A stretch of DNA of 64,000 nt from the NCBI GenBank assembly GCA_051294905.1, contig CM119372.1, positions 23,128,001 through 23,192,000 of the forward strand, given 5' to 3'. The translations under genes and the position numbers were made by a program. Source of the DNA: Botryllus schlosseri. Lineage: Eukaryota. Of the stretch, positions 1,855-23,675 are shown piece after piece (positions within the stretch are counted from its first letter, which is position 1; every line of letters starts with the position of its first letter). The notes beneath the pieces were generated by a model. It did not search any database, had not been told where the DNA came from, and was given only the letters and a program-made list of their open reading frames with translations.

Positions 1855-2870
1855 CTAAAGTTATGATATAATAATATCGTTGGGTTATATTTTTCAACTG
1901 AACAAGTCACACACAATGCGATGTCATGAACAGATAGGAGGATGTCGAACGACACGCATCAGTAACGATCCTTTGGATAGTGTAGTGGTTACGATAAGCG
2001 CCCAGCACGCAGGCGAACCGCGTTCGATTCCCCTTCGGAGGTTTATCTGGGCTCCTATTCCCCTGCCGTTGCCGTTCTTACGGCGACAAAAAAGCCCAGA
2101 AAAAGACCCGACGAAAGAAAGCACTCACAATGAATGGAAAAGAACTAGTAGAAAGGGCCGCGGCTTCAAAGAGATCAACATCGAAAAAGAACTGTAACAT
2201 CGGGCACTCTAGGCCGAGGTGGATGTTAGAGTAAAGGATCGCTACTGATGCGTTCTACATCCTCCTATCTGTTCATGACATCGCATTGTGTGTGACTTGT
2301 TCAGTTGAAAAATATAACCCAACGATATTATTATATCGTAACTTTAGTAGGGATGGTGTGAACATGAGGTTCACGTTCACGTTCTGTGTGTGAACCTCAG
2401 AAATTTAGAGGTTCACGTTCACAAAGAACCTTGCTAGGTTCTGCACCGTGAACCTTTCTCATATATTACAATTTTCACTTCATTATAACATCTTTGGTTG
2501 AAATTATTTGCATTCTAACTGCGGCCACTCTATGCATGGCGATGGCACCATAAAAACTCAACACTAAACGAGCATGCACCTTGACAATCTCAAAAGTTTT
2601 ACTTGCTTTGTTACAAAAGTTTGCTCGAAATATCCAGCTTTCCGTTTGTGAATATTTAGTGATTCTCTGCTGTGAGCTTGACCCGCAATCACACAACATC
2701 AAGAGAGAAATACACTACAGGTAGTACGCGAATGATGCTTACTCAAGCTATCAATGAAATTGATATCGTTGTCTGATGTTAAAAAAATCTAGCAGGCGCA
2801 CGGGGTCAATCTTGACTTCATATGTTTACTGTATCATAAAAACCAATCCGTGCGATTGGGGTGTTGGCTA
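897..2870. repeat. Large inverted duplication (arms ~897-1974 and ~2233-2870, ~258-bp spacer)
   Basis: Identical 75-aa ORFs at 1065-1292(+) and 2475-2702(-). The reverse-complement match includes non-MITE flank (1855-1974 vs 2233-2347). Confidence 0.9.
1334..1760. mobile_element. hAT-type MITE family B nested in MITE A
   Basis: TIR CAGAGATGAGC...GCTCATCTCTG. Perfect 8-bp TSD GAACCTAC at 1326-1333 and 1761-1768. The empty site is visible in the inverted copy near 2430. Confidence 0.93.
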
Positions 2871-3590
2871 TATCAAAAAGTTGGGAAATTGCGTACTTTT
2901 TGAGGATCAAAACGCATGATTTTGCGTCAAATACCACTATTCGTCCAATTCGATTTTCGTTCAGATTCAATCGACAATTAGATTACCCAAAATGTATCGG
3001 CGTGCCCTCTGCTTCGGATATGTTATATATGCGGATAAGTATTACATCATGATATTAATGACAATATCAGAACGTTGAGAAATTGCGTACTTTTTGAGGA
3101 TCAAAATGCACGATTTTGCGTCAAATACGACTTGTCGTCCAATTCGATTTTCGGTCTATTTCAATCAACGATTAGGACACCCTAAATGTAACGGCGTGCT
3201 ATATGCTTCGGATATATTATATATTCGGATAAGTATTACATTATGATATTAACGGTAATATCAAAAAGTTGAGAAATTGCGTACTTTTTTAAGATCAAAA
3301 TGCATGATTTTGCGTCAAATACGAATTTTCTTCCAATTCGATTTTCGGTCAGTTTCAATCGACAATTAGAACACCTAAAATATAACGGCGTGCCCTCTGC
3401 TCCGGATATGTTATATATTTGGATAAGTAGTAAATCATGATATTATTGACAATAGCAAAAAGTTGAGAAATTGCGTACTTTTTTAAGATCAAAATGCACG
3501 ATTTTGCGTCAAATACCACTTTTCGTCCAATTCGATTTTCGGTCAGTTTCGATCGACAATTAGGACGCTCGAAATGAAACGCAAAGCTTC
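2871..3590 (+). repeat. Left terminal array, ~3.7 copies of a 194-bp unit
   Basis: TATCAAAAAGTT-like unit starts at 2871, 3065, 3259 and 3453. Confidence 0.93.
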
Positions 3591-4057
3591 GAGATATTAG
3601 GCATTTTTGGCGTTGGTGATAGGTTGATCTTCAATATGGTTTGTCTTTGTTTACTTGGGGTGTTCATGGTGTTTGTCAACTACTATGGTCATTTACACAA
3701 GGCCATTTGTTCATTTTAATCCGTAGCTGCCGACTTGTAGCACGGCCCGACGAGGACCGATTACACTGATGAGACAGCCTTGATAAACATCCAACACTAA
3801 GGTAGGAATTCTTGAGTCAACCTCGGTAGCTAACGACTATAATGGCTGTCAATTGAATTCACGATCAATAATTGGTATTTTGCGGCGTAGACACGAAGAT
3901 TATTAAGGGCCCCCGCGCCCCAATTACGTTAGTTGATGAACCAGCTCGTCATGTCATTTGAACTTGTGAACTATATGAAGAAGTGTTGTCACTTGGCAAA
4001 ACCAATACGGTGCAGTTTTAAGAATTGTATGTTGCAAGCGTTGTTCTATCAAGGGTC

Positions 4058-6292
4058 ATGGGTCGGGCTTCTACCCGTACCAAGCATTCAAGTACCCATC
4101 AGTCAAGTACCCACCAGCCAAGTACCAAGCAGTCAACTACCAAGCAGTCAATTACCAAGCAGTCAACTACCAAGCAGTCAACTACCAAGCAGTCAACTAC
4201 CAAGCAGTCAAGTACCCATCAGCCAAGTACCAAGCAGTCAACTACCAAGCAGTCAACTACCAAGCAGTCAACTACCAAGCAGTCAACTACCAAGCAGTCA
4301 ACTACCAAGCAGCTAAGTACCAAAAAGAAATATCTAGTGAGGACTATAGCTAATTTTCTGCATCGTAATGGAGTAGAATCACTAAGAACTGATAAACTCC
4401 AAAATGATTTTCTGGATAGCTGCAGTTATTGTAAAGGGAAAAGCACGACGCAGCGGAAAACACTTCTGCGTAGTTTCTGTAAACTTCAAGATGTGGAGAT
4501 AAAGAATGCTCTCAAAGGAATGTCTCGTTTCGAAACAGATGATGTGGCAACCAGTGATGACGTCGATGTCCGCTGTATTGTTGAAAAACACAACTCCAAA
4601 CAAGTTAATGAGTTGACAAATTTTGCTGGTCAGAGGTACTGTGTGTGTCGCAAAGAGTGGCGCGGGGAGGAGCTAGTTCAATGTGACACGGGTGAGTCGT
4701 GGTTTCATGATATCTGTATTTTCAAAGGCACTGCTCTGCGTAAATTTGTAAAGGGAAAGTGGGAAAAAGTACCATTACTGTGCCAACACGCCACTGTAGC
4801 CGTACATACCAAATCAGGATCAGGAATATTCCACCGTGTTGATGGAAATATACAATCAAAGATTCTCCAAGATGCCGGTACCTGTACCTCGTCGGTGGAG
4901 CTATTGACAAAAGGGACTCAAACCGATAGCATTCATGATGTACAAGAGATTCCATCGTGTAATGATGGCATTGCGCAGATCCACAAATCATTCTCTGATG
5001 AACTGTCGGATAACGAAGGGGAAACCGGACTTGGCTCATTAATGACCAGCAGTAAACTCGACCTTATTACATCTAAAACAATTGAAATCGAAGGTCACTT
5101 TAATATTGAGGGAAGTAAATGGAAATACATCGTCGGTGTCGATAATAACAGATTCGATAAGGACGAGTACAGGAATGTTATTCTGGACCCTATAAAATCT
5201 TTGTACGACGAATGCGTTCCGGCCTTTCTCAATCATTATTTGCGACATGTCGTCAACGAAAGAGGGAGTGACTCTTATGAAGTCGGTAATGCAAATCTGT
5301 ATTGCTCGCACAAAACATGTTACGTTACGTATCGTGTAACCTTTATGCAGCGTCAAAATTGTCCAGATGTTGAAGGGAGAATTATTATCGACGGAACTCG
5401 TTGTCACACAGGAGAATGCGTACGATCACGTCCAGTTCGCGGAAGCGAGCGGAAAATGATCAGAAGTAAACTGGACCACCGAAAGCCGGCATCGCTCCAC
5501 AACGAGTTGTACGATACTCTGACCGCTGAGCAGAGGATCCTCGGCTCCCATACAGACGTGCCAAGTTCCAACGTACTTCGAAAACTCAAGTGCGAACAGA
5601 CTTTAATTGATGTCAAACGCGAATGGTACGTCAACTTGGAGAAAATGAAGGATGAAGAGGCGGATTCCACAAGATTTATTAAATCCATTCAAACATCTCC
5701 CCCGCAAATCATTATATTTACAATTTTCGGGATCAAAGCGTTTAATACCTTATGTAAGATAGACATGATTTATTGCGACGCCAGTGGGAGCCTGAAAAGA
5801 GGCGAAGACTTCCAAATTTATACGTTGTTAGTGCGGAATCCTATCAAAGGAGAAGTTTCTCTTCCTATCGCTTCCTGCATTACAAAAAGTCACGACTCTA
5901 TATCTATTTCACAGTTCCTGAATTTTTTTCTATCTGAACGATTTCGCCTGACCGGAGCTCAATCAGCTCCGCTAAGGATTATTATCGATGGATCGCCTGC
6001 ACTGTGGAATGCAATTTTAAGATCGTTTTGCAACGAAACAAGACTGCAATATTACGTCCGCTGCTATCGCGTAGTATCTGGAATGCCAAATGCGAATGAC
6101 CTTAAACTGCCATTTATTCAGAATTGCTTGGCACATGCCATGAAAGCTGCAAAAGTCATGATCGTCAAACATTATAAAAAGCGCCTCAAAACACATGCCA
6201 TGTGTTGGATTTCCAGACTGTTTCGGGCGAAAACCATTGAAGAATTGGACTCGATTGTAAAAAGTTTCATCATCGTTACAAAGTGCAAGTAA
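4058..6292 (+). CDS. Exon 1 of transposase: low-complexity repeat, PHD finger, NOF/MULE transposase core
   Basis: PHD-like YCVCRK..LVQCD..SWFHDICI; GCM1/WRKY-like CSHKTC...RCH; catalytic YCDASGS and IIDGSPAL; CxxH motif NCLAH. First in-frame ATG at 4058. Confidence 0.85.
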   Translation: MGRASTRTKHSSTHQSSTHQPSTKQSTTKQSITKQSTTKQSTTKQSTTKQSSTHQPSTKQSTTKQSTTKQSTTKQSTTKQSTTKQLSTKKKYLVRTIANFLHRNGVESLRTDKLQNDFLDSCSYCKGKSTTQRKTLLRSFCKLQDVEIKNALKGMSRFETDDVATSDDVDVRCIVEKHNSKQVNELTNFAGQRYCVCRKEWRGEELVQCDTGESWFHDICIFKGTALRKFVKGKWEKVPLLCQHATVAVHTKSGSGIFHRVDGNIQSKILQDAGTCTSSVELLTKGTQTDSIHDVQEIPSCNDGIAQIHKSFSDELSDNEGETGLGSLMTSSKLDLITSKTIEIEGHFNIEGSKWKYIVGVDNNRFDKDEYRNVILDPIKSLYDECVPAFLNHYLRHVVNERGSDSYEVGNANLYCSHKTCYVTYRVTFMQRQNCPDVEGRIIIDGTRCHTGECVRSRPVRGSERKMIRSKLDHRKPASLHNELYDTLTAEQRILGSHTDVPSSNVLRKLKCEQTLIDVKREWYVNLEKMKDEEADSTRFIKSIQTSPPQIIIFTIFGIKAFNTLCKIDMIYCDASGSLKRGEDFQIYTLLVRNPIKGEVSLPIASCITKSHDSISISQFLNFFLSERFRLTGAQSAPLRIIIDGSPALWNAILRSFCNETRLQYYVRCYRVVSGMPNANDLKLPFIQNCLAHAMKAAKVMIVKHYKKRLKTHAMCWISRLFRAKTIEELDSIVKSFIIVTKCK
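4078..4322 (+). repeat. 15-bp coding minisatellite (CAACTACCAAGCAGT)n encoding (TKQST)n
   Basis: About 16 tandem 15-mers in frame with the transposase ORF. Confidence 0.9.
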
Positions 6293-6722
6293 GATTTCAA
6301 TATCAATCAAGTTCAGAGTTTATGACTGATCCACTCTATTTATCAACTGCGTATAACTGCGTATATAAATGGTACTAATAGTCATAACTTTCCTTGTATA
6401 GACGGACTATATAAATATATATAGTAATGATGCGAGCCTCAAGTTCACATCCGTGTTCGGCATATGCGAACGTTGCTAATTTAAAAGTTAGTCCTTGCGA
6501 AAAGAAACAAAATTCAGAAATGTGAAGATTTCTAGAAACTATAGTATTGTCTACTCTTGCATCGTGTTGGATCCCTCACAGGATCAATCACAAACCTAAA
6601 TCCTTCTACCCGTACCCACCTTAGTGATGTGATACCGCGTGGCATCGTAAGTTCACTCTGATCACACAGAACCGTTTCTGCAAAAGTTTAAGTTCACACA
6701 TTCATGCACTCATGGTATACAT

Positions 6723-7703
6723 TAGGGATGGTGTGAACGTGAGGTTCACGTTCGCGTTCTGTGTGTGAACCTCGGAAATTTTGAGGTTCACGTTCACAAA
6801 CGAACCTTGGTAGGTTCTGCACTGTGAACCTTTTCCATATATTACAACTTTCACTTCACTATAACATCTTAGGTTGAAATTTATTGTATTGAAACTGCGG
6901 GCCACTCTATCTATGGCGATGTCAGAATAAAAAATCAACACTAAACGAGCATGCACCTTGACAATCTGAAAAGAAATTACTTGCTTTTTTGTTACAAACG
7001 TTTGCTCGAAATATCCGGCTTTTCGTTTGTGAATATTTAGTGACTCTCTGCTGTGAGCTTGGCCCGCAATCACACAACACAAGAGCGAAATACATGCAGT
7101 CAGCGAATGATGCTTATTCAACCAATCAATGAAATTGATATCTTTGTCTGATGTAAAAAATCTAGCAGGTGTACGGGGTTAATCTTGACTTCATATGTTT
7201 ATCGTATCATAAAAACCAAATCCACGCGATTGGGGTGTTGGCTACAGCTGTGTAACTTGTTAATGGGGTAATGTCGGTAGCAAGTATAGAAACCCGTTTT
7301 ACCCTCTGCTCAATATCAACATAGCAATACCCAGTCGCCAAATACATTGTCCGGTCTGGCCTAAACCGTTAAGGCGTAAGCTTATATTCCCTTGTAAGTC
7401 CTCGTCGAAAATGTTGGCAAAGCCACGGAAGGTATAGATTTTATGGGATTATTATATCATTTGATTGCACCAGTTGATACATTTGGCGACGTTTAAAACG
7501 TTAATATGTACGGCAGCATTGTGGCATGTCGTCGCTAGGTATCGTGCACATTATAGGCTACCACTTCACTGAAATGTAGGGTTGGACTTAGCAATATGAC
7601 GTCACGTGACGTCACGAGGTTCACGTTCGCGTTCACACAGAACCTTTCAAAAAGGTTCGCGTTCACACGAACCCGAACCTTTCAGAGGTTCACACCATCC
7701 CTA
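6723..7703 (-). mobile_element. MITE family A inside the transposase intron
   Basis: TIRs TAGGGATGGTGTGAAC / GTTCACACCATCCCTA. Perfect 8-bp TSD GTATACAT at 6715-6722 and 7704-7711. Confidence 0.95.
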
Positions 7704-7910
7704 GTATACATATGCGCAGATCGTGTGTATGTGTATCATGAGTCGGTGTATATGCCGCAAAAACATCAAGGACAAAAAAATAAACAATATGCGTCCTTTC
7801 CACGAACACAAGCCTTCACATATGTGTGCCCCCATATTCCTACATATATGGTGCGTAAATGATGTGTCATTCAGTGATGGTATCTTCGAATATATATTCA
7901 TATTTTACAG

Positions 7911-8767
7911 GTATACGTCAACTTTTGTTGATGATCATTTCGACCATATAATGAAAGAAGATGGAAGCAATGTAGACGGAATAGATTCGTTCCCGAGAGA
8001 CTTCGCACACTCAGACTCTAGCGAGACTATTTTGATTGAATCTAAAAAGCAAGATGAGTATCATGAGCTCCGATCACCATTTCGTCACAGGTATGGGACT
8101 ATGACGGAAGCATTCCGAGAATCGCAGTACTACATAGCTCATTCATCAGAACTTGCCGGATCGTCACGCCAGTTGAATGTATACAACGATGGCGACAACG
8201 ACTTCTGAATTAATGATTGGAGATCTAAGCCGGCATTGTAACAATTTCTCAACGGCTAAGCAAACCGAAATGTACAACGGATTTTCGAACAATTACCGAC
8301 GGATAGCCAAGTCCAGGTACCGCAATATCACAATTGACAATAGAACTCAGGGATGCGTCGAGCAAAGCTTTGATTGGCTAAAAAATGTTATACTGGGGAA
8401 AGAAAGAGCAAACCGTTTGGATAGTTTCGTTGTCAAATATAAACGTTCAATTTTGATTCAAGAAAAAAAATTCTTCGACGCACTTTATCGAAATGGATAT
8501 TTGGCAACATTATTATACAAATTAAGTGATCAGTCCGTATCAAAGACTTCGAAAACAGTACAGTCAAAGTTTAAACGAAAAAAGTCACGCGGTAAAGGAT
8601 GCTATTCGAGCGATCGGATTAACATCATCAAGACCACAATCAAATACGCCAATCAGCGTACAACAAAAGCTGTTGCCTTGAATTGCCCCGAAACGATAGA
8701 TCTGACGGATCAAGCTCCATCATCCCCTCCGATCTCTTCGGAACGCAATTTGGTACCATTTACATAG
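7911..8767 (+). CDS. Exon 2, first part: transposase C-terminal catalytic Glu region (frameshifted)
   Basis: RTQGCVEQSFDWLKNVIL matches the T/NxxVExxF..K third catalytic residue motif of MULE transposases. It lies in ORF 8177-8767, a different frame from 7912-8208. Confidence 0.75.
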
Positions 8768-8770
8768 GAT

Positions 8771-11101
8771 TTGCCACAAATAACAAAAGTGCCGTACCCT
8801 TGGTCTACTTTGGACTTCCAAAAATGTGATGGTTTGGTAACGGCAATCTGGAAAAAGATGTATAACTTTGATCGAATCGAGCAAATGTTTGACACTGCTG
8901 TGCAATATTTACGTGATTCATTTCTTCTGTGGCTCGATTTGAAATCTCTCATACCGCTTTCAATGTGTGAATCGATCGTAAGTTTTCACGAAATTGAGAA
9001 ATCCCACCCTCTTGGCTGGCTGACGTCGGATGTTGTATACTGCTACATTAAAAGGTCGGCGTCCTTGGCCACGCAGCAAAATGAGTCGAAGGCTTTTGAA
9101 TGCATTGACCCAGACAACACCAGAGAGATACTTCAGGGAAAAGGATTCAGATCTCCAAATCGTAGCTGCAGCTTATCTACAGTGAATGCTGCTTCAGGTG
9201 TTAAGTCCCGTGCTTTCATGACGCGACTTTATCCATTAGTTTGGGAAAGGCATTTCTATCTAATTGTATTTGATTCACATGACAATTCTATCACATTATA
9301 CGACTCCATTGACCACATGAACGAAGGTCTTAACAGGGCTATTAATGAACATTTAATGCCCGAGCTGCAAAAATTAACCAAGTGCGAGGTCGTTTCTTTT
9401 TCACGACAATCTCCGATTAAGCAGCCAGATCTTGAGAGCTGCGGCGTTTGCGTTTGCGTTGTCGCGGATCGGGTTTGTTTCGGACTCGATCAACCTTCTG
9501 AAGGTACCGATGTAATCAAATTTTTGATCATGTACCGAAAATGGATATGTTTTCAAGTCGTTAGTCAGTCACATTCTGTTCACCGCGATATTAGACACAT
9601 CGCTGTCAATACGTTTTGCGCTAACACCTGCACCAAAGGTATGCCTAATATTGGAAATTCTTGTTGGTTCAATGCTACCACCCAATGCTTGGCATTATGT
9701 CTGAAAGGCCATATCGGTACAGCAATGAACTATGCCGAGTACGCATCCATAACCTCTGATTTCATGCAATTAATTATGCAATTGACTTTAGATAGCCGCA
9801 GACATTGCATCGTATCTGACATTGAAAAATTGGTATCAGATATATGTTCAAAGTTTGGATGGGATTGTGGCACGCGGCAAGATGACGGAGAGTTCATCAC
9901 CAGAATTCTCGATACAGACTTGAGCGATGCGATGGAGCAGATGGGGGTTACTTCCAAATTTCGATTGATTCGCAAAGTCAATTGCAAGCGTTGCAATTTT
10001 CCCTCGAAGTTCATAGAACATCGGCTATCCGTTGTTTTACATACATTTGAAGAGGACAGTGATATTTCTGACCTGATCACAAATTTTCCTCGTCAATGTG
10101 TTAATACTAACAGCAAATGCCTACAATGCCACGCTGATGTAGACGAACATGTCGTATTCGGAACCCTTCCCAACATGCTGGTGATAAATGTCAGTCGCGG
10201 AACTCCAGAGGGTAAAAACATCATCTCAGTCCAGATACCCGATTCAATGGATCTCGAAGTAGATGGATTGAAATCCCATTATATACTAAAAGGGAAAGTA
10301 ATCCATCATGGTACGTCGTGTGCATCGGGCCACTATCTCGCATATACCGGAAATCATGATGGATTCTGCACAGTATTCGACGACGACGCATTACGTGTGG
10401 TAAATACTGATCGGCTAATAATTGACACGCAACAAAATGCTACAATCCTGATGTACGTAAAAACTGGTGAGACGATCAAGGACGCAAGATCGAAGCAAAT
10501 TCCTCGTCGCCGCATACCGCCTAATTTTGGCACATGCACAATTGTGGAGAAAAAGAAAGATGTGCCGTATGTTCCACGGTATGGAAACAATCTCAACAAT
10601 ATGACATGGACAGGAACGTCTGTCATGCAGTTGAATTCTATGTTAAACAATTTAAAAAAACTTACCACCTCGTCAATGAGAAATGGAAATGCGAAAGCAG
10701 AATGGTATCGACATTCTCTGTTCGTGAAAGGACAACAAAAATCCCTGAAAAAATTCAATTCGACTCTGAAATATGCCGAGAGCGAAACTTCGGAAACGCA
10801 TCTGGAAAATTTGTTGGAATTCATTAAATCGAAATTTCGCCTTAGAACTAGAACCGTTAAATATTTCAAGCACATGAGCGGGGATTCGTCCCTATACAGC
10901 TCAAAAGACAGTTTAGTCGTTTATCCGAATCCTGAGGTGTTTGGGAACGCTTTGTTTCATAGTTTTAAAGACAAAAAACGAAATTTCCGAGAATATGTAA
11001 ACGAAGTGCTGCATTTTGAAGGAATGATATTTTTCGCAATGGCACTAAAAAATCAGGACTACAATTCAATATCAAAAGACTTTGGGTTTTCATTGGATTA
11101 A
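8771..11101 (+). CDS. Tandem Ulp1/SENP-like C48 protease and USP-like C19 deubiquitinase domains
   Basis: Ulp1: WLTSDVV, HFYLIVFD, YDSI, QPDLESCG (H-D-Q-C intact). USP: Cys box GMPNIGNSCWFNAT, RQDDGEF, CKRC/CLQC, His box VIHHG-SGHYLAY, FDDD. Confidence 0.9.
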   Translation: MPQITKVPYPWSTLDFQKCDGLVTAIWKKMYNFDRIEQMFDTAVQYLRDSFLLWLDLKSLIPLSMCESIVSFHEIEKSHPLGWLTSDVVYCYIKRSASLATQQNESKAFECIDPDNTREILQGKGFRSPNRSCSLSTVNAASGVKSRAFMTRLYPLVWERHFYLIVFDSHDNSITLYDSIDHMNEGLNRAINEHLMPELQKLTKCEVVSFSRQSPIKQPDLESCGVCVCVVADRVCFGLDQPSEGTDVIKFLIMYRKWICFQVVSQSHSVHRDIRHIAVNTFCANTCTKGMPNIGNSCWFNATTQCLALCLKGHIGTAMNYAEYASITSDFMQLIMQLTLDSRRHCIVSDIEKLVSDICSKFGWDCGTRQDDGEFITRILDTDLSDAMEQMGVTSKFRLIRKVNCKRCNFPSKFIEHRLSVVLHTFEEDSDISDLITNFPRQCVNTNSKCLQCHADVDEHVVFGTLPNMLVINVSRGTPEGKNIISVQIPDSMDLEVDGLKSHYILKGKVIHHGTSCASGHYLAYTGNHDGFCTVFDDDALRVVNTDRLIIDTQQNATILMYVKTGETIKDARSKQIPRRRIPPNFGTCTIVEKKKDVPYVPRYGNNLNNMTWTGTSVMQLNSMLNNLKKLTTSSMRNGNAKAEWYRHSLFVKGQQKSLKKFNSTLKYAESETSETHLENLLEFIKSKFRLRTRTVKYFKHMSGDSSLYSSKDSLVVYPNPEVFGNALFHSFKDKKRNFREYVNEVLHFEGMIFFAMALKNQDYNSISKDFGFSLD

Positions 11102-11355: not shown

Positions 11356-13095
11356 GATATTATCGTTAATACCATGATGTAATACTTATCCAAATGTATA
11401 ACATATCCGAAGCAGAGGGCACGCCGTTACATTTTTGGTGTCCTAATTGTCGATTGAAACTGACCGAGAATCGAATTGGACGAAAAGTCGTATTTAACGC
11501 AAAATCATGCGTTTTGATCCTCAAAAAGTACGCAATTTCTCAATTTTTCGATATTATCGTTAATATCATGATGTAATACCTATCCAGATATATGACATAT
11601 CCGAAGCAGAGGGCACGCCGCTATATTTTAGGTGTCCTAATTGTCGATTGAAAATGACCAAAAGTCGAATTGAACGAAAAGTCGTATTTGGCGCAAAATC
11701 GTGCATTTTGATCCTCAAAAAGTACGCAATTTCTCAACTTTTTGATATCATCATTAATATCATGATGTAATTCTTATCCAAATATATAACATATCCAAAG
11801 CAGAGGGCACGCCGTTATATTTTTGGTGTCCTAATTATCGATTGAGACTGAACGAAAATCGAATTTGACGAAAAGTCGTATTTGACACAAAATCATGCAT
11901 TTTGATCCTCAAAAAGTACACAATTTCTCAACTTTTTGATATTATCGTTAATACTATGATGTAATACTTATCCCAATAAATAACATATCCGAAACAGAGG
12001 GCACGCCGTTACATTTTAGGTGTCCTAATTGTCGATTGAAACTGACCGAAAATCGAATTGGACGAGAAGTCGTATTTGACGCAAAATCGTACATTTTGAT
12101 CCTCAAAAAGTACGCAATTTCTCAACTTTTTTATATTATCGTTAATGCCATGATGTAATACTTATCCAGATATATAACATATCCGAAGCAGAGGGCACGC
12201 CGTTATATTTTAGGTGTCCTAATTGTCGATTGAAAATGACCAAAAATCGAATTGAACGAAAAGTCGTATTTGGCGCAAAATCGTGCATTTTGATCCTCAA
12301 AAAGTACGCAATTTCTCAACTTTTTGATATTATCATTAATATCATGATGTAATACTTATCCAAATATATAACATATCCAAAGCAGAGGGCACGCCGTTGT
12401 ATTTTTGGTGTCCTAATTATCGATTGAGACTGACCGAAAATCGAATTTGACGAAAAGTCGTATTTGACACAAAATCATGCATTTTGATCCTCAAAAAGTA
12501 CGCAATTTCTCAACTTTTTGATATTATCGTTAATGCCATGATGTAATACTTATCCAGATATATAACATATCCGAAGCAGAGGGCACGCCGTTATATTTTA
12601 GGTGTCCTAATTGTCGATTGAAAATGACCGAAAATCGAATTTGACGAAAAGTCGTATTTGACGCAAAGTCATGCATTTTGATCCTCAAAAAGTACACAAT
12701 TTCTCAACTTTTTGATATTATCGATAATACTATGATGTAATACTTATCTAGATATATAACATATCCAAAGCAGAAAGCACGCCGTTATATTTTTGGTGTC
12801 CTAATTATCGATTGAGACTGACCGAAAATCGAATTTGACGAAAAGTCGTATTTGACGCAAAATCATGCATTTTGATCCTCAAAAAGTACACAATTTCTCA
12901 ACTTTTTGATATTATCGATAATACTATGATGTAATACTTATCTAGATATATAACATAATCAAAGCAGAGGGCACGCCGTTATATTTTAGGTGTCCTAATT
13001 GTCGATTGAAACTGACCGAAAATCGAATTGGACGAAAAGTCGTATTTGACGAAAAACCATGCGTTTTGATCTTTTAAAAGTAAGCTATTTCATTT
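11356..13095 (-). repeat. Right terminal array, ~9 copies of the 194-bp unit, inverted relative to the left array
   Basis: GCAGAGGGCACGCC recurs every ~194-195 bp and is the reverse complement of GGCGTGCCCTCTGC in the left array. Confidence 0.93.
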
Positions 13096-13559
13096 TTTTG
13101 TTTTTATTGTTTATTGAATAACTTATAAATTGCGGCATTACAGTCGACCTATACCAAACACGAACGTGACGTTGATCGCAATAATCGTAATTATTTATAT
13201 TCTGATGTGCTCAAGACACATAGTTTGCAATGCGATGTAGTTAACAGGCAAGAAGATGTTGCATTTACCTATTATGGTATTTTAATCAAACAACGACTAA
13301 AGCCAATTGGCCGATGTAACAGTGTGGGATAGGCTGTCTTCGTTAAACGTTATTATTTGTTTTTGTTTTTCTGCTCGATATCACATATAATCTTTTGTGG
13401 AGTGTTTCTTCGGGCGTCTTGACGCCGTAAGAAATAGTCAAACTTGGTGGAAGGAACACAAATTAACCTCTGATGCTTCGGCTACAGGCGAGAATCGAAA
13501 TAGGTCCGCCTGCGTAGATTACGTAACGGCTGAAAATTTAGATGCCATAAGGGTCCGTG

Positions 13560-14530
13560 GACATATTAGCATGCGACACAATAGCATGCGACACTTGAGC
13601 ATGCGACACTTGAGCATGGCGACTTTTGGTCATGGCGACTCGTGGGCATGTAGACATATCAGCACAGGGACATATTAACATGAGGACATATTAGCATGGG
13701 GACACATAAGTATAGGGACACACGAGCATGGATACACGTGAGCATCGGGACACATCAACATGGTGACAATTTAATAAGTGCCACTTGAGCATGGTGACAC
13801 ATGAGCATGCGATACATGAGCCTTGACGACACATGAGCATGGGTACACAAGAGCATGGGCACACATGCGCATATGGACACATGGGCATGGGGGCATAAGA
13901 GCAAAGGTGCACATGAGCATGGGGTCATGTACGCATGCGACACTTCAGCATGCGACACGTCTACATGCAGACACTTGAGCATGCGACACGTGGATATGCA
14001 GACACTTGAGCCTGCGACACTTGAGCATGCGACCCTTGAGCATGGGACAGTTGAGCATGCGACACTTGAGCATGCGACAGTTGAGCATGCGACACTTGGG
14101 CATGCGACATTTGGGCATGGGACATTTGAGCATGCGACACAATAGCAAGCGACTCTTGAGCATTCGACACTTGAGCATGCGACATTTGGGCATGGGACAT
14201 TTGAGCATGCGACACAATAGCAAGCGACTCTTGAGCATGCGACACTTGAGCATGCGAAACTTGGCGACACTTGGGCATGCGACACTTGGGCATGCAACAC
14301 TTGGGCATGCGACACTTGGGCATGCGACACTTGGGCATGCGACACTTGGGCATGCGACACTTGGGCATGTGGTCATGCTACACTTGGGCATGCGACACTT
14401 GGGCATGCGACACTGGAGCATGCGACACTTGGGCATGTGGTCTTGCTACACTTGGGCATGCGACACTTGAGCATGCGACAGTTGGGCATGCGACATTTGG
14501 GCATGCGACAGTTGGGCATGTGACCATATA
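13560..14530 (+). repeat. Left subterminal 15-bp array (CTTGGGCATGCGACA)n
   Basis: Direct tandem repeats visible; they produce spurious HATLG/MRHLG ORFs. Confidence 0.92.
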
Positions 14531-16000
14531 TTAGCGCGTAACCAATTTGATTGCCGCGCGAGGAAAGTGGCAAATTGATTGAGTGGGTGGGTGCATGGTC
14601 TGTGACTATATGGATTTGTCTGAAAAGCTCCAAAGATCGGGGTAAAGCGATAAAGGTTGTCATTGCTCCACATATATTAGAATCGTTTACACCAGATGAA
14701 CTAAAAGGATATATCCTTTCGTGAGACGAAAGCAATTCCAAATTCGCAATTCGACACGGGACTTATTATTTTATTTTGTGGGTCTCAATTTATACGTGAG
14801 GTTCAAGCTGCGAGCGCTGGTCTTTTCGGCGCCTGGACAGTGGTCATATCAATGTTGAACATTTTGGTCAACATGTGGCGGTTATTTTATTTCAAGGTTT
14901 TATCGCCGTCAGTACCTACAAGGAGTCGCGTGTTGCCCGAAACGTGGGTCTCGTGGTGTGAAAATGCCAAACGCCGAAATGCCAGTCGATCTCGAAATAC
15001 GGCGTTTGAGCAAGCGTTTTCCGAGTCAAGCCGTGGGCAGACTCAAGGCCTTACTCATTCCCTTTTTTACGGTTTGGCCCTGAATATATTGCGGAAATTG
15101 CGCTGTGAGCATGTTTGGTGCCTGCATTCAGAATTTCAACTGTAATATATAGCACCGTTATAAGATGGAAATCATGTTCTAGCGCCGTATGGCTTCATCG
15201 TTGGCTGCGTAGGCTATTCCCAAATCGGCGGACATTTTTCACCAGAAAGGTATCCGATGGATTCGCAAAATCGGTTAATTCCTCTCAACGCTCTGTTTGA
15301 TCACTTAATATAAAACGCAGCGATTATGTACAAACGAATGGACGATGACTGTTACTGAAAAACCACACACAAGCTGTTGTCTACAATAGCGATCCTCCAA
15401 TCCTAACAAGAACCGAATCTTCGGCGATGCGGACAAATGCAATACACGATGGTAGATGACCTGGCGCTTTATGAATGTACGCAATGTTAGATCATCGCAA
15501 TACAGTTGATAAAACCGTCCGTCCCTTTGTATGGCGGAAATATCAACAACGCGGTACCAATACCCATCATCAGTAATCCAATAAATAGCTTGTGCTTATG
15601 CCTTAAAACTTCAGGATGAAGTCTGGTGTCTCATTATTGAAAATATTTGCTTTGGCTACTACAGTATGTCAAATAGTCATGTTATTGAGCGGTGTTATTT
15701 CGTCTATACATCCAGCGTATAATTCTAATATAATGTGTTGACGTAATTGAAGGCAATATTAGGCAACCAACATCATACCCAGACCCGCGGATTGCAAGAT
15801 CGCGAGCAATTAACAAAACCGCAGACGTCTGCAAGCAATCATCAAGCTGTCTAATCTATCGAGTAAAGACTCGAAACCGAACAACGCTCGAAATCCTACC
15901 CGAATACCAAATGATCTCTCGTATCTTGGAGTTGTATAGTTGTAGTAAAATTTGCTTTGATTAGCGTTCGGTTGGCGCTATTCATAGTTGGAGCAGCAAC

Positions 16001-17458
16001 ATGTCGGAATACCGGGTTTTTACTTCTACAAAAGGAAAACCAAAACTTGCGTACCATGGATATTCTTACCGCCGAAGCAATCAAAATATCAATTCTACCA
16101 ACTGGCGATGTGATTTTAGAGGCTGTAAAGGCAGCATAGCGACTTCAAGAGACTACATAACTTGTCGTCAGGCGGTAAACGTATTACAACAGCATTGTCA
16201 CGTTCCAGATCCTGCTAGAATAGAGGCACTATTGCTGAAAGATGAAATAAAGGTGGCTGCATCTGTTGCTAATGATGCTCCAAGGCGCATACTTGGTCAA
16301 ATGCTAGCGGGAGTTTCCGAGGAAGCCGCCTCCAAGACACCACAGAGGAAGAGTCTCTCAAGGATGATTCAGAGACACAGGCATCGAAAAGGTGGATTTG
16401 AACCGGCGCCCTCGTCGAATGATTTTGTTATCCCGGAGAGATATAAAACGGTGTCACATGGCTCGGATGAAGTGGCATTTCTTCTGCATGACGACTTCGA
16501 CTTGACTGCAGAGGAGCAATGCAGTCCTCATAGAGCTATCGTATTTGCATCACGGTACATGCTTAACACACTGCAACAATCCTCCACATGGATGCTTGAT
16601 GGTACATTCAAAGTTGCGCCTTCCCAGTTCTATCAGTTCTTCACGATTCATGCTGTACTTGATGACTATGTTGTTCCTTGTGTTTACGCTCTTCTTCCCA
16701 ACAAGAGGTCAGAGACATATAGAAGATTGTTCAAAATATTGAAAGCCAATCAGAACGGTCTTCAACCGCAGCACGCCGTGATCGATTTTGAAATAGCTTC
16801 CAAGAATGCACTGGAAGGCGAGTTCCCTGGGATCAAAGTTAGTGATTGCTACTTTCATTTATGCCAGTCCATCTGGCGGAGTGTTCAGAGGTTCGGCATC
16901 AGTGAACAGTATACCTGCAACAACGACGTCCGCAAATACGTTAAAATGCTTTGTGCTCTAGCATTTTTACCTCTTGACGAAGTGGTCGCTGGATACGACG
17001 AACTGAATTTAAAGATACAAGAAGCAGAACTACCAGAAGGGTTGAGTCATCTTTATCAATACTTTGAAGATTGCTATATTGGCCGACAAAACGTCGGAAC
17101 TGCTGATAGAAGTAAATCCAAATTTGAGATATCAATGTGGAATGTAAAGGATAGAACTGAATCCGGCATTCCAAGAACCAACAACAGGTTGGAGGGATGG
17201 CACAGCGGCATCCAAAGACATTTCGACTGTGACCATCCCTCGATTTGGAGATTTTTGCAAGCTTTGAAGCAGGAGGAGATGATGCAATACCTTCTGCTTC
17301 AACAACGGATCGCTGGCATGCCTGCACCACCTACCGAAAAGCGATATCGTGAGCTTAATCTCAGACTTGAACGACTTATTCAGTCATACAAAAATCAAAG
17401 TATGACGCGAATGGAATTTGTTCAGGGAGTAGCCTTCAACATCAGCCTATGTGTTTGA
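16001..17458 (+). CDS. FLYWCH-MULE transposase, 485 aa, uninterrupted
   Basis: FLYWCH-like KGKPKLAYHGYSY..WRC...C...H.H; DDE core WMLDGTFK, VIDFE, CYFH, RTNNRLEGWH. Confidence 0.95.
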   Translation: MSEYRVFTSTKGKPKLAYHGYSYRRSNQNINSTNWRCDFRGCKGSIATSRDYITCRQAVNVLQQHCHVPDPARIEALLLKDEIKVAASVANDAPRRILGQMLAGVSEEAASKTPQRKSLSRMIQRHRHRKGGFEPAPSSNDFVIPERYKTVSHGSDEVAFLLHDDFDLTAEEQCSPHRAIVFASRYMLNTLQQSSTWMLDGTFKVAPSQFYQFFTIHAVLDDYVVPCVYALLPNKRSETYRRLFKILKANQNGLQPQHAVIDFEIASKNALEGEFPGIKVSDCYFHLCQSIWRSVQRFGISEQYTCNNDVRKYVKMLCALAFLPLDEVVAGYDELNLKIQEAELPEGLSHLYQYFEDCYIGRQNVGTADRSKSKFEISMWNVKDRTESGIPRTNNRLEGWHSGIQRHFDCDHPSIWRFLQALKQEEMMQYLLLQQRIAGMPAPPTEKRYRELNLRLERLIQSYKNQSMTRMEFVQGVAFNISLCV

Positions 17459-19109
17459 ATTGAAATATGAACCGCTGGATAAGATATTGTGATTAGAGAT
17501 TAGCAGATGTTTCGTTGTCAGTGATGATATTTTGGTCTTTTCAGCAAAAATTGAGAGAAACGGCTTTACTGTGATGCATTTTCATTTGCACAAATTGATA
17601 GAAACGGCTTTACTGTGATGCATTTTCATTTGCACATTTCTTTTGTGTTAGACTGTGTCAAATATATGTTGGTATGACATAGTACTATCGTAGGTATTGA
17701 AGCAGAAATTGTCAGGAAAGGTCACAGTACACTTGTAGAGGGTCATACTTCCCATGTAATGGCTTAGGGCTACTGGAGAACAGTGTGACGAAGTAGGTCT
17801 GTATTTCTATGACATGCGGTGAGGTTGAGGTAGACTCTTTTAGTTCGATTCAAAACATTTAAACCTTGATCGAATTAAACCATGTTATACTAGCTCTACT
17901 TAGCCAGGGTTAGGCGCGAAAGTCCTCTAAAACATTTCCACACAACCTGCTGAACGGTATAGCCGCGAGTAGCCTGGGCTATGTATGGGAAGTTTCGTTC
18001 AGCCGAAACTTGATCACAGGTCACGCGGCGGTTTACCCATAGTAGTAGTTAGTTGAGATATACCAAATAATGTAACAGTTATTGAGGATTGGAGACTTTA
18101 AGCCATCAGGCCTACTTACTAAAGCTTTCGCAGATGTGAAATGCGTTTAGAACAGTGGTTCCCAGCAACCTATTTGGATGTCGGAGCAGTGTTGCAAACT
18201 TCGGAGTACCTATATGGAGCCGCATGAAAACACTCGCGAAGCCTATACTTATAAAGAAAATTTAATGGTATAGCTATAGCCTACCTCTGGATCTCACCGT
18301 CCAGCTAATTCAAAGGCATGTACGATGCACATATAGACTTCTATAGATGCTATATCGGTTGTTTTAGCATTGCTAGATAAAGACTGGCGAGTGCTATACA
18401 TTGAAATATACTAAAAATGCATATCATCACTACAGTATACTATATATAACGTTATGTAATACCTCTTCATACATTCCAGCAGTTAATGCACAAGTTTGAT
18501 TGGGATTGTACGCTGAGTAATATTGGTAATATTGCAATTTATACTTGACTATCAGCCGATACTTTGATGCCAGTAAAATTGTGTCGAAAGTTACTCTTCA
18601 CAGAGACAATCTGTAAAGGTCTATGACCATCAGAACTCAGAATATATCATTTTCTGACGGGTATAAATCCATGGTTTCGACGCTATTCTGCAAAAATTCT
18701 CTTTCTCCGTTTTCAGAAGAGGCCTTTGGCAAACATCAGCAACTGTTTATAATATTTTAGTGGCATATTCAGGGGTCTATCAGAGCCGCAAGAAGGTTAG
18801 CCGGGTTAGAAATCACTGGTTTAGAATCTACTTTCAGAACAAACGCTATATCCAGTATCGTGGCGTCCCCGCATCGACAACAAACTTCATTCTGCATGGG
18901 TATGCACATGCACACTGCACAGTCTTGTGATGTGCAGGATTGAAATATACAGACTGCAATTTCCACTGATGTCATGTTTCACTAACCGCAGACGAAGCTA
19001 GCCGTGAAATCGAGTTATTTTATTTATTAATAAAAGCATGTTGTGGTGCTTATAACAGCGTGGTTTTTTGCACCACGTGACAACAAATTCCATCACTAAC
19101 ACAAGCTAA

Positions 19110-19820
19110 CTTGCTCAAGTGTCACATGCTCAAGTGACGCATGCTAAAATGTGGCACATGCTAAAATGCGGCACGCTCAAGTGTCGCATATGCTCAAGTG
19201 TCGCATGCTCAATTGTCGCATGCCCAAGTGTCGCATGCCCAAGTGTCGCATGCACAAGTGTCGCATGCCCAAGTGTCGCATGCCCAAGTGTCGCATGCCC
19301 AAGTGTCGCATGCCCAAGTGTCGCATGCCCAAGTGTCGCATGCCCAAGTGTCGCATGCCCAAGTGTCGCATGCCCAAGTGTCGCATGCCCAAGTGTCGCA
19401 TGCCCAAGTGTCGCATGCTCAAGTGTCTGATGCCCAAGTGTCGCATGCGCAAGTATCCGCATGCTCATTTGTCACCATGCTAATATGTCACCATGCTAAT
19501 ATGTCACCATGCGCAAGTGTTAACATGCTGAAGTGTCCTAATCGTTATGTGCCCCCATGCTCACGTGTTACCATGCCCATATGTAACCATGTTCATTAGT
19601 CCCCATGCGAATGTGTAACCATGCTCAAGTGTCGCACGCTAAACTGTCCCCATGCCCATGTGTCCCCTTGCTCATATTTCACCATGCTCATATGTCCCCA
19701 TGCGCATGTGTCCCCATGCTCATGTGTCCCTATGCTCATGTGTTACCATGCTTATGTGTCCCCATGCTGTAGTGTCGCATGCTCAACTGTCGTTTTGCAT
19801 TGTGTCGCATGCTCATATGT
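19110..19820 (-). repeat. Right subterminal 15-bp array (TGTCGCATGCCCAAG)n
   Basis: Reverse complement of the left array unit. Confidence 0.92.
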
Positions 19821-20469
19821 CGGGCAACCGCCATAAGTACTACCTGGTGGTTGTAAAATGAAGCACTTCTTCAAGTTTCGATTATATATTGTATTGATCA
19901 TACCGTTTGCGCCATTTATTGATAAAACTCGTGTGTTTCAGTTCGTTTGCACCCAAATCTGTCGCGAAATTGTTTTTCCGGTTATAACATTTGATTTTAG
20001 CACAAGTGAATCATTTCGACAATAATGACTCCGCGATTTCCGAAATATGACGTAAGCATTTTCTGGCAGAATCACAGTGGTCTCACCTCCGTAGGTATAG
20101 GTTAGTTATCTAAAATAATAATAGTGAGTGTTGATGATGATAAATAAAAGCTGGTTAACTTTATTTATTTAAAATGGATACAGTGGATTTGTGAAACATG
20201 GAGTTCTCTTATTGATGAATGCATTACTATATGTAGCTTACAGTTGGCTTGTAATCTATGACTTACTTATATTATATGGCGGTAGACGGTCAATATTGTA
20301 CGTTGTCAAGTTGTTTATTTTGAAGCACGAGCAAGATCAAGATTGACATACCGAACAAAAACGGGTATCCATCATGAGTATCGCCGACTTAACTGAATTT
20401 TATACATTTTCATTTCACAGTTACAAAGCATTTGCAACGAATGTTTTGGCACCTCAATGTTAATGACTA

Positions 20470-21040: not shown

Positions 21041-21851
21041 GTAATGACTCTATCCTTCTTGATCAGATTTGATAACTTCTTAATAAACAAATACCGGTAT
21101 ATAGATAGTAATGAACTAATGAGACATCACTGGGTATCAAATTCTGTCGTCATTTACACACCAATGCGACCAGGCCTATATGAGTTTGGTTAGGATTTCT
21201 GATCACTGAACCGCTTACACTACAGTGGATAGAAAACTGCATGTGCATCACATTAAATGTTATGGAATTCAATAAGGCTGTTAAACGGCTCATTTGTCAG
21301 ATTTTGTGAGTTATGTCAATGCGGAGTAATTCGAAATGACGACAATAGCTCATTACAATAAACCAATTGGTGATGAAAAGATGAAAAATTTTTGTCTATG
21401 CTATCAGAGCACAAGCTGTTGAAGGCATCCCCTCAAAAAAGCTTTTATAACAAAGCATAGCCTTTTTTTCCATACTACTGAATATGGTTGCGGGCTAGCT
21501 GCCAGACCCCAGATTAACGACGAGATAGTGTAGTCCTTCTTTCGGCACTCTGAAATTGTGTGGAGACGAAAAATATAATAGTGCTTTCAACTCGAAAATC
21601 TCATTGTCGAAGCAGTTGGACTGTGTACATGGGAATGCAATGCCTACTTTGCCAATCACACTTGCAGGTTGCAACTATAGTCTTGATGATATTGATATGC
21701 AGAGTCATGGAATGCATTCATAATAATATTATAGGCTATCATAAATTACTGCGCTAACATGAATCACCCCACTTGATTCTATCAATCAGATATATTTAAA
21801 TCCATACTTATTGCTGGATATTATAATCTGCGATGTAGCTCCCTCATAGGC

Positions 21852-23675
21852 ATGCATAAAGACACAAAATCCAGCAATCCACTATTCTGCAATAAGCCGG
21901 ATTTCAACAGTAGCAAGTTCGTCTTGCTGGGCCGACTTAGATATACTGTACAGCGTCTTGTCAGCTACACTGACTGCATTAAACATCACAACTGGAATCA
22001 CACAGGAGTAATTGAAGTTATCGATATACTGGACAGCATTTTTACTCACGGCCTGCTCTCGGGATATGGAAGAAAGCGAGATATCAGATATCCTGGATTT
22101 TTGACCGTTTTACAGTGGTGTCTTGAATCCAGCGGAGACGCCGGTAATCAAAGGTCAGCCATACAAGATATTCAACAAAGCCTGTGTTTGTGCAGCGGAG
22201 ACGCGATAATCGAGGGGGTTACTATTCTCATCAACGAGATCCCCTTGAATGCAATCATCAACCTTCTTGAAGGTTCTGATCCGATAAGTCAGAACTACAC
22301 GACAGATGCTTTCATGACAAGCGAAATTTGTGGCAGTGGTTTGTTAACGTGCCTGAAAGCGGTACATCTAAAGTCATCAAGGACTTTGGCGGAAGTACCG
22401 TTCTTCACACTGAAATACAGCTTTTCGACGTCATTACAGGTTACTGACGAACGTATTCACGTCTCTACGCAATATCATTCGACGAGCGCGGCGGATGAAG
22501 ACTGCAAAGTAGCTGATTCGTCGTTACCGGATGTTGTGGCTTGTACCAAGCTGCTGGATACACATGAATCAGATGGCAATTGCAGCGTAGAGTTGGAAAA
22601 ACATGAAAATTTGGCTGAACCTAACATTAGCGGCGACGGCGAAGAAATCTACGATACCTGTGATATTCAAGATCGAGAATCGAGCGAAGAGGATGATACT
22701 CACGAAAACGCCCAGCTTCATCTGAGCGAGCTGCTTATCACTGTCATACAAGGCAGAAACTGCGGTATGTCAAATCCGGATTTACTGGAATGCGTTGACA
22801 AAGTAGTGCCCGGGATGACAGACGGCACTGGTGAAGCTTTGATGCAACAAGCCCCGTTTTCCATCAAAAACTACTGTGACGGAAATGTTCGGAGCGAATC
22901 AAATGCGTCCCGGTTTTCGGATTTCAGCGATGCACAGTCGGCCGCTTTGGATAACGGTAAACTAGAGTGGTTTATTCCTTCTGACGACGTTCCGCAGAGT
23001 CTGCTTCCTGTTCCTGACATGGGAAAGTTGATTTCTAATCCTACATTACATCCACACGAGAGAATTGACACGGAATTGGACTTGACACCTATCGTTAATT
23101 TGCCGGATCATACGTTACCGAGAAAACAGGCTCTCGCTTCTCAGAAATATAAATGCTTCGGGTGCGGACTTTGTCTTCAAGATTGCCGTCGTGGTTTCAA
23201 CCGCTGCGAGCTCTTCAATTCTTATTTTTGCCATACGTGCCACGATAATCGTACGAAAAGAATTCTACCGGCCCGCGTTTTTCATATGTTCGATTTTAAG
23301 CGCTACAAGGTGTGTAAAGTTGCAAGTGTTTTACTCGATGAATTACACTGTGAACCGTTATTTGATATCGAAAAAATCAACCCGAGCATCTATGGCAAAA
23401 GCAGAAGTCTCCTACGGTGCCTGGAGTTGAGGAAAACTGGTTCCAGACTGCTGAAGAAGATCGAATCTTGTCCATTGCCATGGCAGTCTCAAGACACTGT
23501 CTTGATGGAAAGTTTGAACTGCTTGCCATTACACATGCTCAGAAGCGCGCCGTCAGTGTATTCTGTGTCGGATTTGATTCATGTCAAAGGCGGTGTAATC
23601 TTGAAGCAGTTGAATTCGTTTGTGAAGGAGTGTACGAGCCATGTTGAAACTTGCAATCTTTGTTCTAAATCTTGA
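21852..23675 (+). CDS. RUBCN: Rubicon-family protein (RUN domain + Rubicon-homology/DUF4206 domain), 607 aa, single coding exon
   Basis: N-terminal LGRLRYTVQRLVS..SIFTHGL; Rubicon-like LEWFIPSDDVPQSLLPVPD; RH domain QKYKCFGCG, YFCHTCH, ILPARVFHMFDFKRYKV, HVETCNLC. Confidence 0.82.
   Translation: MHKDTKSSNPLFCNKPDFNSSKFVLLGRLRYTVQRLVSYTDCIKHHNWNHTGVIEVIDILDSIFTHGLLSGYGRKRDIRYPGFLTVLQWCLESSGDAGNQRSAIQDIQQSLCLCSGDAIIEGVTILINEIPLNAIINLLEGSDPISQNYTTDAFMTSEICGSGLLTCLKAVHLKSSRTLAEVPFFTLKYSFSTSLQVTDERIHVSTQYHSTSAADEDCKVADSSLPDVVACTKLLDTHESDGNCSVELEKHENLAEPNISGDGEEIYDTCDIQDRESSEEDDTHENAQLHLSELLITVIQGRNCGMSNPDLLECVDKVVPGMTDGTGEALMQQAPFSIKNYCDGNVRSESNASRFSDFSDAQSAALDNGKLEWFIPSDDVPQSLLPVPDMGKLISNPTLHPHERIDTELDLTPIVNLPDHTLPRKQALASQKYKCFGCGLCLQDCRRGFNRCELFNSYFCHTCHDNRTKRILPARVFHMFDFKRYKVCKVASVLLDELHCEPLFDIEKINPSIYGKSRSLLRCLELRKTGSRLLKKIESCPLPWQSQDTVLMESLNCLPLHMLRSAPSVYSVSDLIHVKGGVILKQLNSFVKECTSHVETCNLCSKS

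Follow-up and report, generated by a model that had tools for sequence, protein, structure and literature searches.

Ulp1, OTU and USP protease domains borne by transposons have been noted since about 2006-2010; in the literature searched, only VTD has been assayed. Ulp1 domains occur at the C-terminus of Mutator and Ginger1 transposases, some of which also carry a PHD finger, and the same source, in the part available, reports a C19 domain for just one Trichomonas protein, whose transposase belongs to another type (PMC2836005). UCH and Peptidase_C48 are among the domains captured by Helitron-like elements (PMC11417382), and 121 VTD Helitrons also carry OTU, deubiquitinase activity having been shown for VTD (PMC9741609). 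The Repbase group Rehavkus is placed in or beside the Mutator/MULE superfamily, with insects and an annelid as its listed hosts (PMC6446971). The text and three supplements of that paper, as far as available, hold no mention of a Rehavkus protease, which Repbase entries may nevertheless note; the accessible part of PMC13359780 describes Rehavkus features with no protease term, and that of PMC6431247 held nothing relevant.

A tandem of Ulp1 and USP domains

A stop-free frame of 776 codons at positions 8771-11098 (+) of the window, i.e. the whole 64,000-nucleotide stretch of Botryllus schlosseri DNA analysed here, encodes an Ulp1/C48 domain followed directly by a compact USP/C19 domain (Table 1; residues are numbered in this frame). 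An earlier note on this DNA had claimed tandem Ulp1 and USP catalytic domains with all catalytic residues present, and motif positions together with fold matches confirm this. The motif residues of the first domain are W83 (9017), H161 (9251), D178 (9302), Q218 (9422) and C224 (9440). Its His-Asp-Cys triad and oxyanion Gln stand in SENP spacing, with the Asp at His+17 as in SENP1. No Pfam C48 match was obtained for the whole 776-codon frame at E<=0.1. The trimmed protein matched PF02902 with E=0.0013 and 19.0 bits, below the curated cut-off of 20.7; at E<=1, 8 of the 16 aligned members match this profile, the lowest E being 4e-7, and a profile of 15 family members matches SENP1 at E=1.6e-8 with the triad aligned. 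The first domain is of the CE clan in fold and of C48 type in its triad.

A single-sequence structure model reached only a pLDDT of 32, and an AlphaFold model based on a 60-row alignment (pLDDT 88.1, pTM 0.70) was used in its place and compared with 48,161 structure chains. The structure prediction called for earlier yields an Ulp1 fold and a USP fold: modelled residues 1-238 match yeast Ulp1 1EUV with Z 19.3 (rmsd 2.6 over 193 residues) and SENP1 with Z 18.4, and modelled residues 254-536 match USP12 5L8W with Z 24.9 (rmsd 2.9 over 266 residues), the predicted USP fold also being recognised by Foldseek (E 2e-18). Both folds are established by profile and structure matches taken together; the outcome that would have refuted the earlier note here, profile searches failing to support either fold, did not occur.

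The description of the second domain as a compact C19 domain with two CxxC zinc-finger pairs is borne out by a Pfam UCH match (E=1e-19, 71 bits against a cut-off of 23.9), by residue mapping and by the USP fold. Its motif residues are N293 (9647), C298 (9662), H521 (10331) and D537/D538 (10379/10382), and the two CxxC pairs (9983/9992 and 10118/10127) together make up one zinc site. The Cys box, QDxxEF motif, His box with Asp/Asn and finger zinc site that characterise C19 are all present, and the window copy has two private changes inside the USP QQDA motif. The conserved domain behind the USP gave no credible Pfam match and no usable Atlas match. It occurs with or without USP in relatives, including a Clavelina protein.

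The frame does not stand as a gene of its own, for no ATG precedes codon 30 and its upstream bound is a TAG private to this copy at 8765. The earlier note had overlooked the place of the pair as the C-terminal tail of a transposase protein, to which PHD and DDE motifs upstream point. We regard it as almost certain that the Ulp1-USP pair is an accessory tail of one large transposase protein, and no cellular gene.

Table 1. Features of the element and its insertions, by position in the window.
Feature	Positions	Strand	Details
Left arm remnant	2870..3581	.	3.7 copies of 194-bp repeat, inverted relative to right arm; outer terminus lost
Predicted exon 1, transposase	4058..6288	+	15-bp low-complexity repeat, PHD-like finger, Asp and CxxH motifs
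Predicted GT-AG intron	6289..7910	+	Splicing preserves frame and restores co-linearity with intronless relatives
Nested high-copy MITE in intron	6723..7705	.	983 bp, 8-bp target duplication; absent from sister copy L005
Transposase C-terminal half	7911..8764	+	Presumed catalytic Glu 8360; basic NLS-like stretch 8567; 41-bp deletion
Nonsense codon private to window copy	8765..8767	+	TAG; TTG in 7 of 7 covering sister copies (8 checked)
Ulp1/C48 (CE-clan) protease domain	8924..9577	+	Triad H161-D178-C224, oxyanion Q218
Compact USP/C19 domain	9638..10471	+	C298-H521-D537; zinc ribbon of two CxxC pairs
Conserved C-terminal domain, no known family	10493..11101	+	~200 aa; common to families B and C and proteins of other genomes
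Right arm, inner part	11356..13551	.	8.9 copies of 194-bp repeat plus 461 bp of arm sequence
Unrelated FLYWCH-MULE element	13552..19829	+	497-codon frame, 15-bp-repeat arms, 8-bp target duplication; inserted in right arm
Right arm, terminal 253 bp	19830..20082	.	True right end of element, from arm continuity in other copies

Structure of the host transposon

There is very little doubt that the element is a foldback cut-and-paste DNA transposon, Rehavkus-like in its general make-up, with satellite-filled inverted arms and a single protein of ~1,800-2,000 aa (about 1,820 aa as predicted for family A, that of the window copy). With much the same assurance, this protein can be read as consisting of a PHD finger, a Mutator-like DDE core, a basic stretch, Ulp1, USP and the C-terminal domain of no known family, in that order. 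The frame at 4022-6292 codes for a PHD-like finger (~4640-4723), two acidic motifs (Asp at 5777 and 5987) and a CxxH motif (6125), and ends at the GT donor at 6289. The two Asp and the Glu of the C-terminal half are taken by us to be the catalytic residues on the model of MULE motifs. The frame resumes at the AG acceptor at 7910; the intron is a prediction, with no spliced reads over it in the two RNA-seq runs described below.

A disruption of the gene by the nested MITE was considered and dropped, since the MITE sits within the predicted intron. Its family has hAT-like ends and an 8-bp duplication, and related pieces lie at 638-2870, 33598-33916, 37911-38220 and 57258-58206. Several nested, inverted MITE fragments are found at the left end of the element, where the arm remnant adjoins a truncated MITE at 2348-2870 and no match to terminal segments of the element was detected. 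On the right, the arm of other copies runs from 13091-13551 on to 19830-20082, which indicates that the FLYWCH-MULE was inserted into this arm, a 511-bp segment of which has 41 matches in the genome. The FLYWCH-MULE is canonical and apparently intact.

The window copy itself is an inactive relic. It has lost its left end and its right arm is split. A deletion of 41 bp near 8196, seen by comparison with copies L002 and L005, shifts its frame, and a nonsense codon stands at 8765, through the position of which copy L002 reads 1031 codons. Deletion and private stop separate the proteases from the transposase in this copy.

In the transposase alignment the MULE-type motifs D, DG, CxxH and TQGxxEQ are conserved, CxxH being located between the second Asp and the Glu. 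The Mutator/MULE assignment is suggested by these motifs and by a language-model feature match, the ESM Atlas clusters nearest to relative P0166 (0.93-0.94) carrying the MULE label. In profile searches the transposase has no Pfam PF10551 (MULE) match, hhalign against the canonical MULE of the window gave no significant match, and the transposase profile found no relative among solved structures. Target duplications and inverted ends were identified in 8 of the 10 fully fetched elements, and none in the other two; the duplications fall within the 8-11 bp of the Mutator/MULE superfamily. Of the traits of Rehavkus, a PHD finger, one ORF and long arms with subterminal tandem repeats are present; the 9-bp duplication is found in four of the eight cases, the other four duplications being of 8 bp.

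Other features of the window include two likely host genes, one with a long exon encoding a Rubicon homology domain (21777-23675, +) and one for a single-exon rhodopsin-family receptor (43776-44843, -). Two broken reverse-transcriptase-tail/GIY-YIG pieces in inverted arrangement (35231-37201) are presumably Penelope-like, judging by their motifs. A weak Pfam L_protein_N match (28393-28944, E=0.009) lies in a region which we take, also by motif, to resemble the C-terminal restriction-like endonuclease of a non-LTR retrotransposon.

Related families in this genome and elsewhere

Searching the 496-Mb genome yielded 58 scored candidates with 60 matches among them, comprising close copies at 83-97% identity and many matches at 22-36% in long open frames. 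Long open frames of 1884, 1678 and 1503 aa in other families run from transposase through Ulp1 to USP. Ten whole elements were fetched and sorted into families A (that of the window), B, C, D and E, with a size of 7-13 kb for those that were sized. Diverged families with both proteases number at least four in this genome, and other animals have relatives of them. In families B, C and D the arms contain tandem arrays with units of 191-205 bp, and one intronless frame encodes transposase, Ulp1 and USP; the PHD finger was found in B and C. Family E is the sister of family A (99/96 in the Ulp1 tree); its protein stops where the USP would start, and its elements still have target duplications. Several of the family-A copies L002, L003, L006, L007 and L008 are without the front half of the transposase and have kept the protease region. 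Beside a family-B element, an apparently intact Gypsy-like gag-pol frame of 1562 codons was observed (L036:1959-6644, -).

Three database proteins, P0006 (2074 aa), P0166 (1905 aa) and P0168 (2054 aa), combine transposase, Ulp1 and USP in one chain. In 26 of the 31 metagenome loci found by an Ulp1 motif, a USP follows directly, and 9 of the 31 have a transposase upstream. The majority of these loci are broken. Since they form 7 clusters from few assemblies, we count them as one or two additional hosts. One of these loci has no DNA match in this genome. Other arrangements include a Clavelina lepadiformis protein with USP tail and C-terminal domain, Apostichopus japonicus proteins P0057/P0169 with the order PHD-USP-transposase, P0077 with transposase then USP and no Ulp1, and P0170 with Ulp1 then C-terminal domain and no USP. 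Modules have thus been gained, lost and reordered among relatives. Word-index protein searches returned 2 cellular USP43 matches, 1 long relative and none at near length; such searches are insensitive, and their blanks show nothing on absence. None of 6 pattern matches in viral contigs was confirmed as a relative.

Conservation, selection and expression

An alignment of 16 rows, 12 of them with both domains, was used to follow the two triads. The Ulp1 triad is present in all 12 two-domain rows, with Asn in place of Asp in two, and the USP triad in 11; both are intact in 11 of the 12, 10 of the 12 being only 21-24% identical to the window sequence. The distance between the two catalytic Cys is 67-74 residues in all 13 rows that carry both. 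As exceptions, the USP His is missing from one metagenome sequence and the Ulp1 His from one family-E copy.

Selection was estimated by counting changes between copies. Families B and D show pN/pS mostly of 0.03-0.3 in both domains, 7 of their 8 domain comparisons lying below 0.35; in 8 of 8 tests omega is 0.04-0.30 with p<=0.019. The six tests in family B give an omega of 0.04-0.24 (Ulp1) or 0.19-0.30 (USP), all with p<=0.019, and the corresponding values in family D are 0.24 and 0.29 (p=0.004); the pairs behind these tests have a reference copy in common and are thus not independent. The USP of one family-D pair has an omega of 0.81. In family C, USP gives 0.20-0.28 and Ulp1 0.65-0.81, the latter on small counts and unconstrained. 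Across 13 copies of family A, omega is 0.38 for Ulp1 (p=2e-4) and 0.83 for USP (p=0.32, no significant constraint), the difference between the two domains having p=0.055. In the window copy 19 codon changes are private; 14 of them alter the amino acid and 5 are synonymous, which gives an omega of 0.76 (p=0.38).

The earlier reading of the intact sites as a sign of recent selection on both activities holds at the level of families, as the omega of 0.04-0.30 in B and D indicates, but not for the window copy, with its deletion, stop, lost left end and 14:5 changes. The check proposed with it, a dN/dS near 1 or loss of catalytic residues, divides in the same way: the private changes of the window copy look neutral, its triads are kept, and B and D are well below 1. 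The sites of the window copy are intact through youth rather than selection on the copy, since its synonymous divergence from the nearest sister copies is only ~2-4%. The lineage, then, has been under selection for both enzymes, with the window copy drifting.

Expression was assessed in two RNA-seq runs whose label is the organism in which the stretch is best represented; about 6% and 13% of the runs, respectively, were read. Depth over the coding region was 0 to 1.6 in one run and 0 in the other, and the MITE was well covered. In these two samples the family shows little or no expression. Contigs of a further run, X1, cover both the transposase and the protease region, the status of this run as RNA being a guess; among the listed runs that hold the stretch none is recorded as RNA.

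Origin of the USP module

USP trees were computed with FastTree on 135 rows and with IQ-TREE on subsets of 25 and 35 rows, hand-chosen after the first tree. In all three, a branch divides the transposon-linked USPs from the named cellular ones, with support of 81 in FastTree for the Ulp1-linked rows (two rearranged rows apart), 97/94 in IQ-TREE, and an SH-aLRT of 89 under a mixture model. A clade of only the ten Ulp1-USP rows was neither found nor rejected (AU p=0.105). A single ancient capture of USP is plausible at most on these trees, in view of long branches and a thin cellular sample. The tree of the transposase C-terminal half is nearly unresolved, and co-inheritance of the three domains is not demonstrable from it. 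A grouping of the window USP with USP36/USP17-like rows was also tried and rejected (AU p=0.0005).

The nearest relatives of the window USP are P0007, P0010 and P0012 (support 95). Two of them have an unrelated N-terminal region in common, for which this genome gave no match. All three are possible domesticated or source genes.

Proposed function and alternatives

DNA-bound proteins are cleared by SUMOylation, then SUMO-targeted ubiquitylation, then proteasomal degradation, and PHD fingers are readers of histone H3 tails. In Drosophila, transposon repression depends on SUMO (PMC10363806), and the active deubiquitinases on Helitrons have been proposed to prevent degradation (PMC9741609). In active copies, the transposase may carry its two proteases along as erasers: SUMO, or another ubiquitin-like tag, would be removed by the CE-clan domain and ubiquitin by the USP, the targets being the transposase-DNA complex and chromatin proteins close by. 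Such erasure would counter both SUMO-dependent silencing and SUMO-to-ubiquitin-to-proteasome clearance, and would lengthen the time available to the complex for transposition. We consider this double role in active copies rather probable. Given the SUMO/ubiquitin clearance of DNA-bound proteins and the SUMO-based repression of transposons, a transposase-borne Ulp1-USP pair acting as SUMO and ubiquitin erasers fits best, and on balance we favour it, with some reserve, as the explanation of the whole. Several results count against it, namely the poor conservation of SUMO consensus sites from one transposase to another, an omega without significant constraint for the USP of family A (0.83) and the Ulp1 of family C (0.65-0.81), the loss of a catalytic His in one metagenome sequence and in one family-E copy, and the near-zero coding reads in the two RNA-seq runs. 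The USP is dispensable for mobility, since family E, which is without it, has elements with target duplications.

It is tempting to speculate further that a coupled SUMO and ubiquitin eraser, its spacing fixed even between far-diverged families, in a clade of animal foldback transposons, is a dedicated counter to SUMO silencing and SUMO-targeted degradation, with the USP as a transposon-specific, shuffled lineage that may have yielded the stand-alone USP genes P0007 and P0010. We advance this only tentatively. Shuffling of the USP is seen in its position before the transposase in the sea cucumber protein and, in another protein, after the transposase with no Ulp1.

The CE-clan domain may instead be a deubiquitinase or deneddylase, and not a SUMO protease, in which case both enzymes would belong to the ubiquitin system and differ in chain or tag preference. 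CE-clan enzymes do differ in this respect (PMC9741609), the family has His-Phe where SENP has His-Trp and Ser-Cys-Gly where SENP has Asp-Cys-Gly, and NEDP1 (Z 17.3) and bacterial CE enzymes (Z 12.6-14.3) are further matches of the modelled fold. The best sequence and fold matches are nevertheless SUMO proteases (SENP1 at E=1.6e-8, Ulp1 at Z 19.3). A non-SUMO substrate is possible but doubtful, and it would leave untouched what the element is, changing only what the domain cleaves.

A role in host DNA repair in place of defence, as proposed for the Ulp1 and OTU domains of Ginger and other transposons (PMC2836005), would have both domains edit ubiquitin and SUMO signals at excision or insertion breaks, steering repair; fusion to the transposase would put both enzymes at the break. 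It predicts nothing observed beyond what erasure on the transposase complex explains, and family E still makes normal-looking insertions with no USP. We hold it to be unlikely.

That the proteases cut the ~2,000-aa protein into pieces, in the manner of viral papain-like proteases, is suggested by analogy with the viral deubiquitinases, which often do so (PMC9741609), and by the very length of this multi-domain protein. There is no conserved Gly-Gly at any domain boundary in 9 sequences, and none at all in family A, which makes self-processing very improbable.

Still less credit can be given to neutral passengers, i.e. captured host gene fragments in the style of Pack-MULEs. Broken frames in the window copy and in the majority of metagenome copies, and an omega of 0.83 for the USP of family A, are what this would lead one to expect. 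Against it, the catalytic residues persist at 21-24% identity, families B and D have a low pN/pS, and the transposon USPs stand apart from the named cellular ones (97/94; SH-aLRT 89); for the lineage as a whole, conservation and selection already largely refute it. A single-copy host gene or an endogenous virus protease, which the resemblance of the compact USP model to giant-virus USPs might suggest (best viral structural match Pithovirus, TM 0.80 on the target, 25% identity), is refuted at this locus by multiple copies, inverted arms, target duplications and the fused transposase, and no relative was confirmed among the viral contigs; the trees covered cellular and transposon-linked USPs.

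Comparison with known systems

Ulp1, USP and VTD+OTU pairs have each been published on transposons, and the Ulp1+USP pair was not found described. No description of an Ulp1+USP transposase was found in the literature searched; Repbase Reports and subscription journals were outside its scope, and Repbase may mention one. Whether transposons fight SUMO/ubiquitin control can be tested directly on a transposase that combines a SUMO-type with a ubiquitin protease, is under purifying selection and has a sister family with no USP. The locus also adds a compact, divergent USP lineage and, possibly, a one-chain enzyme for mixed SUMO-ubiquitin chains.

The elements resemble Rehavkus (-1_HR, -1_TC, -3_TC) in their one long ORF, PHD finger, long inverted ends, subterminal tandem repeats and, in part of the elements, 9-bp duplication (PMC6446971; bioRxiv 10.1101/2024.12.02.626372), and their 7-13 kb compare with 4.9-18.5 kb in Rehavkus (PMC6446971). 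They differ in that half of the duplications are of 8 bp, and the likeness is drawn from published descriptions. With Helitron/Helentron elements (VTD+OTU, UCH, Peptidase_C48) they have in common that a transposon carries deubiquitinases, two classes at once; those elements, however, are rolling-circle, with UCH in a separate ORF and, in the accessible parts of the sources cited above, no Ulp1-USP tandem described. The catalytic domains share folds, triads and zinc ribbon with cellular SENP1/Ulp1 and USP12/USP36, which are separate proteins, at about 15-21% identity. As in Mutator and Ginger1, Ulp1 is fused to the C-terminus of a DDE transposase; unlike here, the Ginger1 transposase has, in the part of the source available, either OTU or Ulp1 and never both (PMC2836005).
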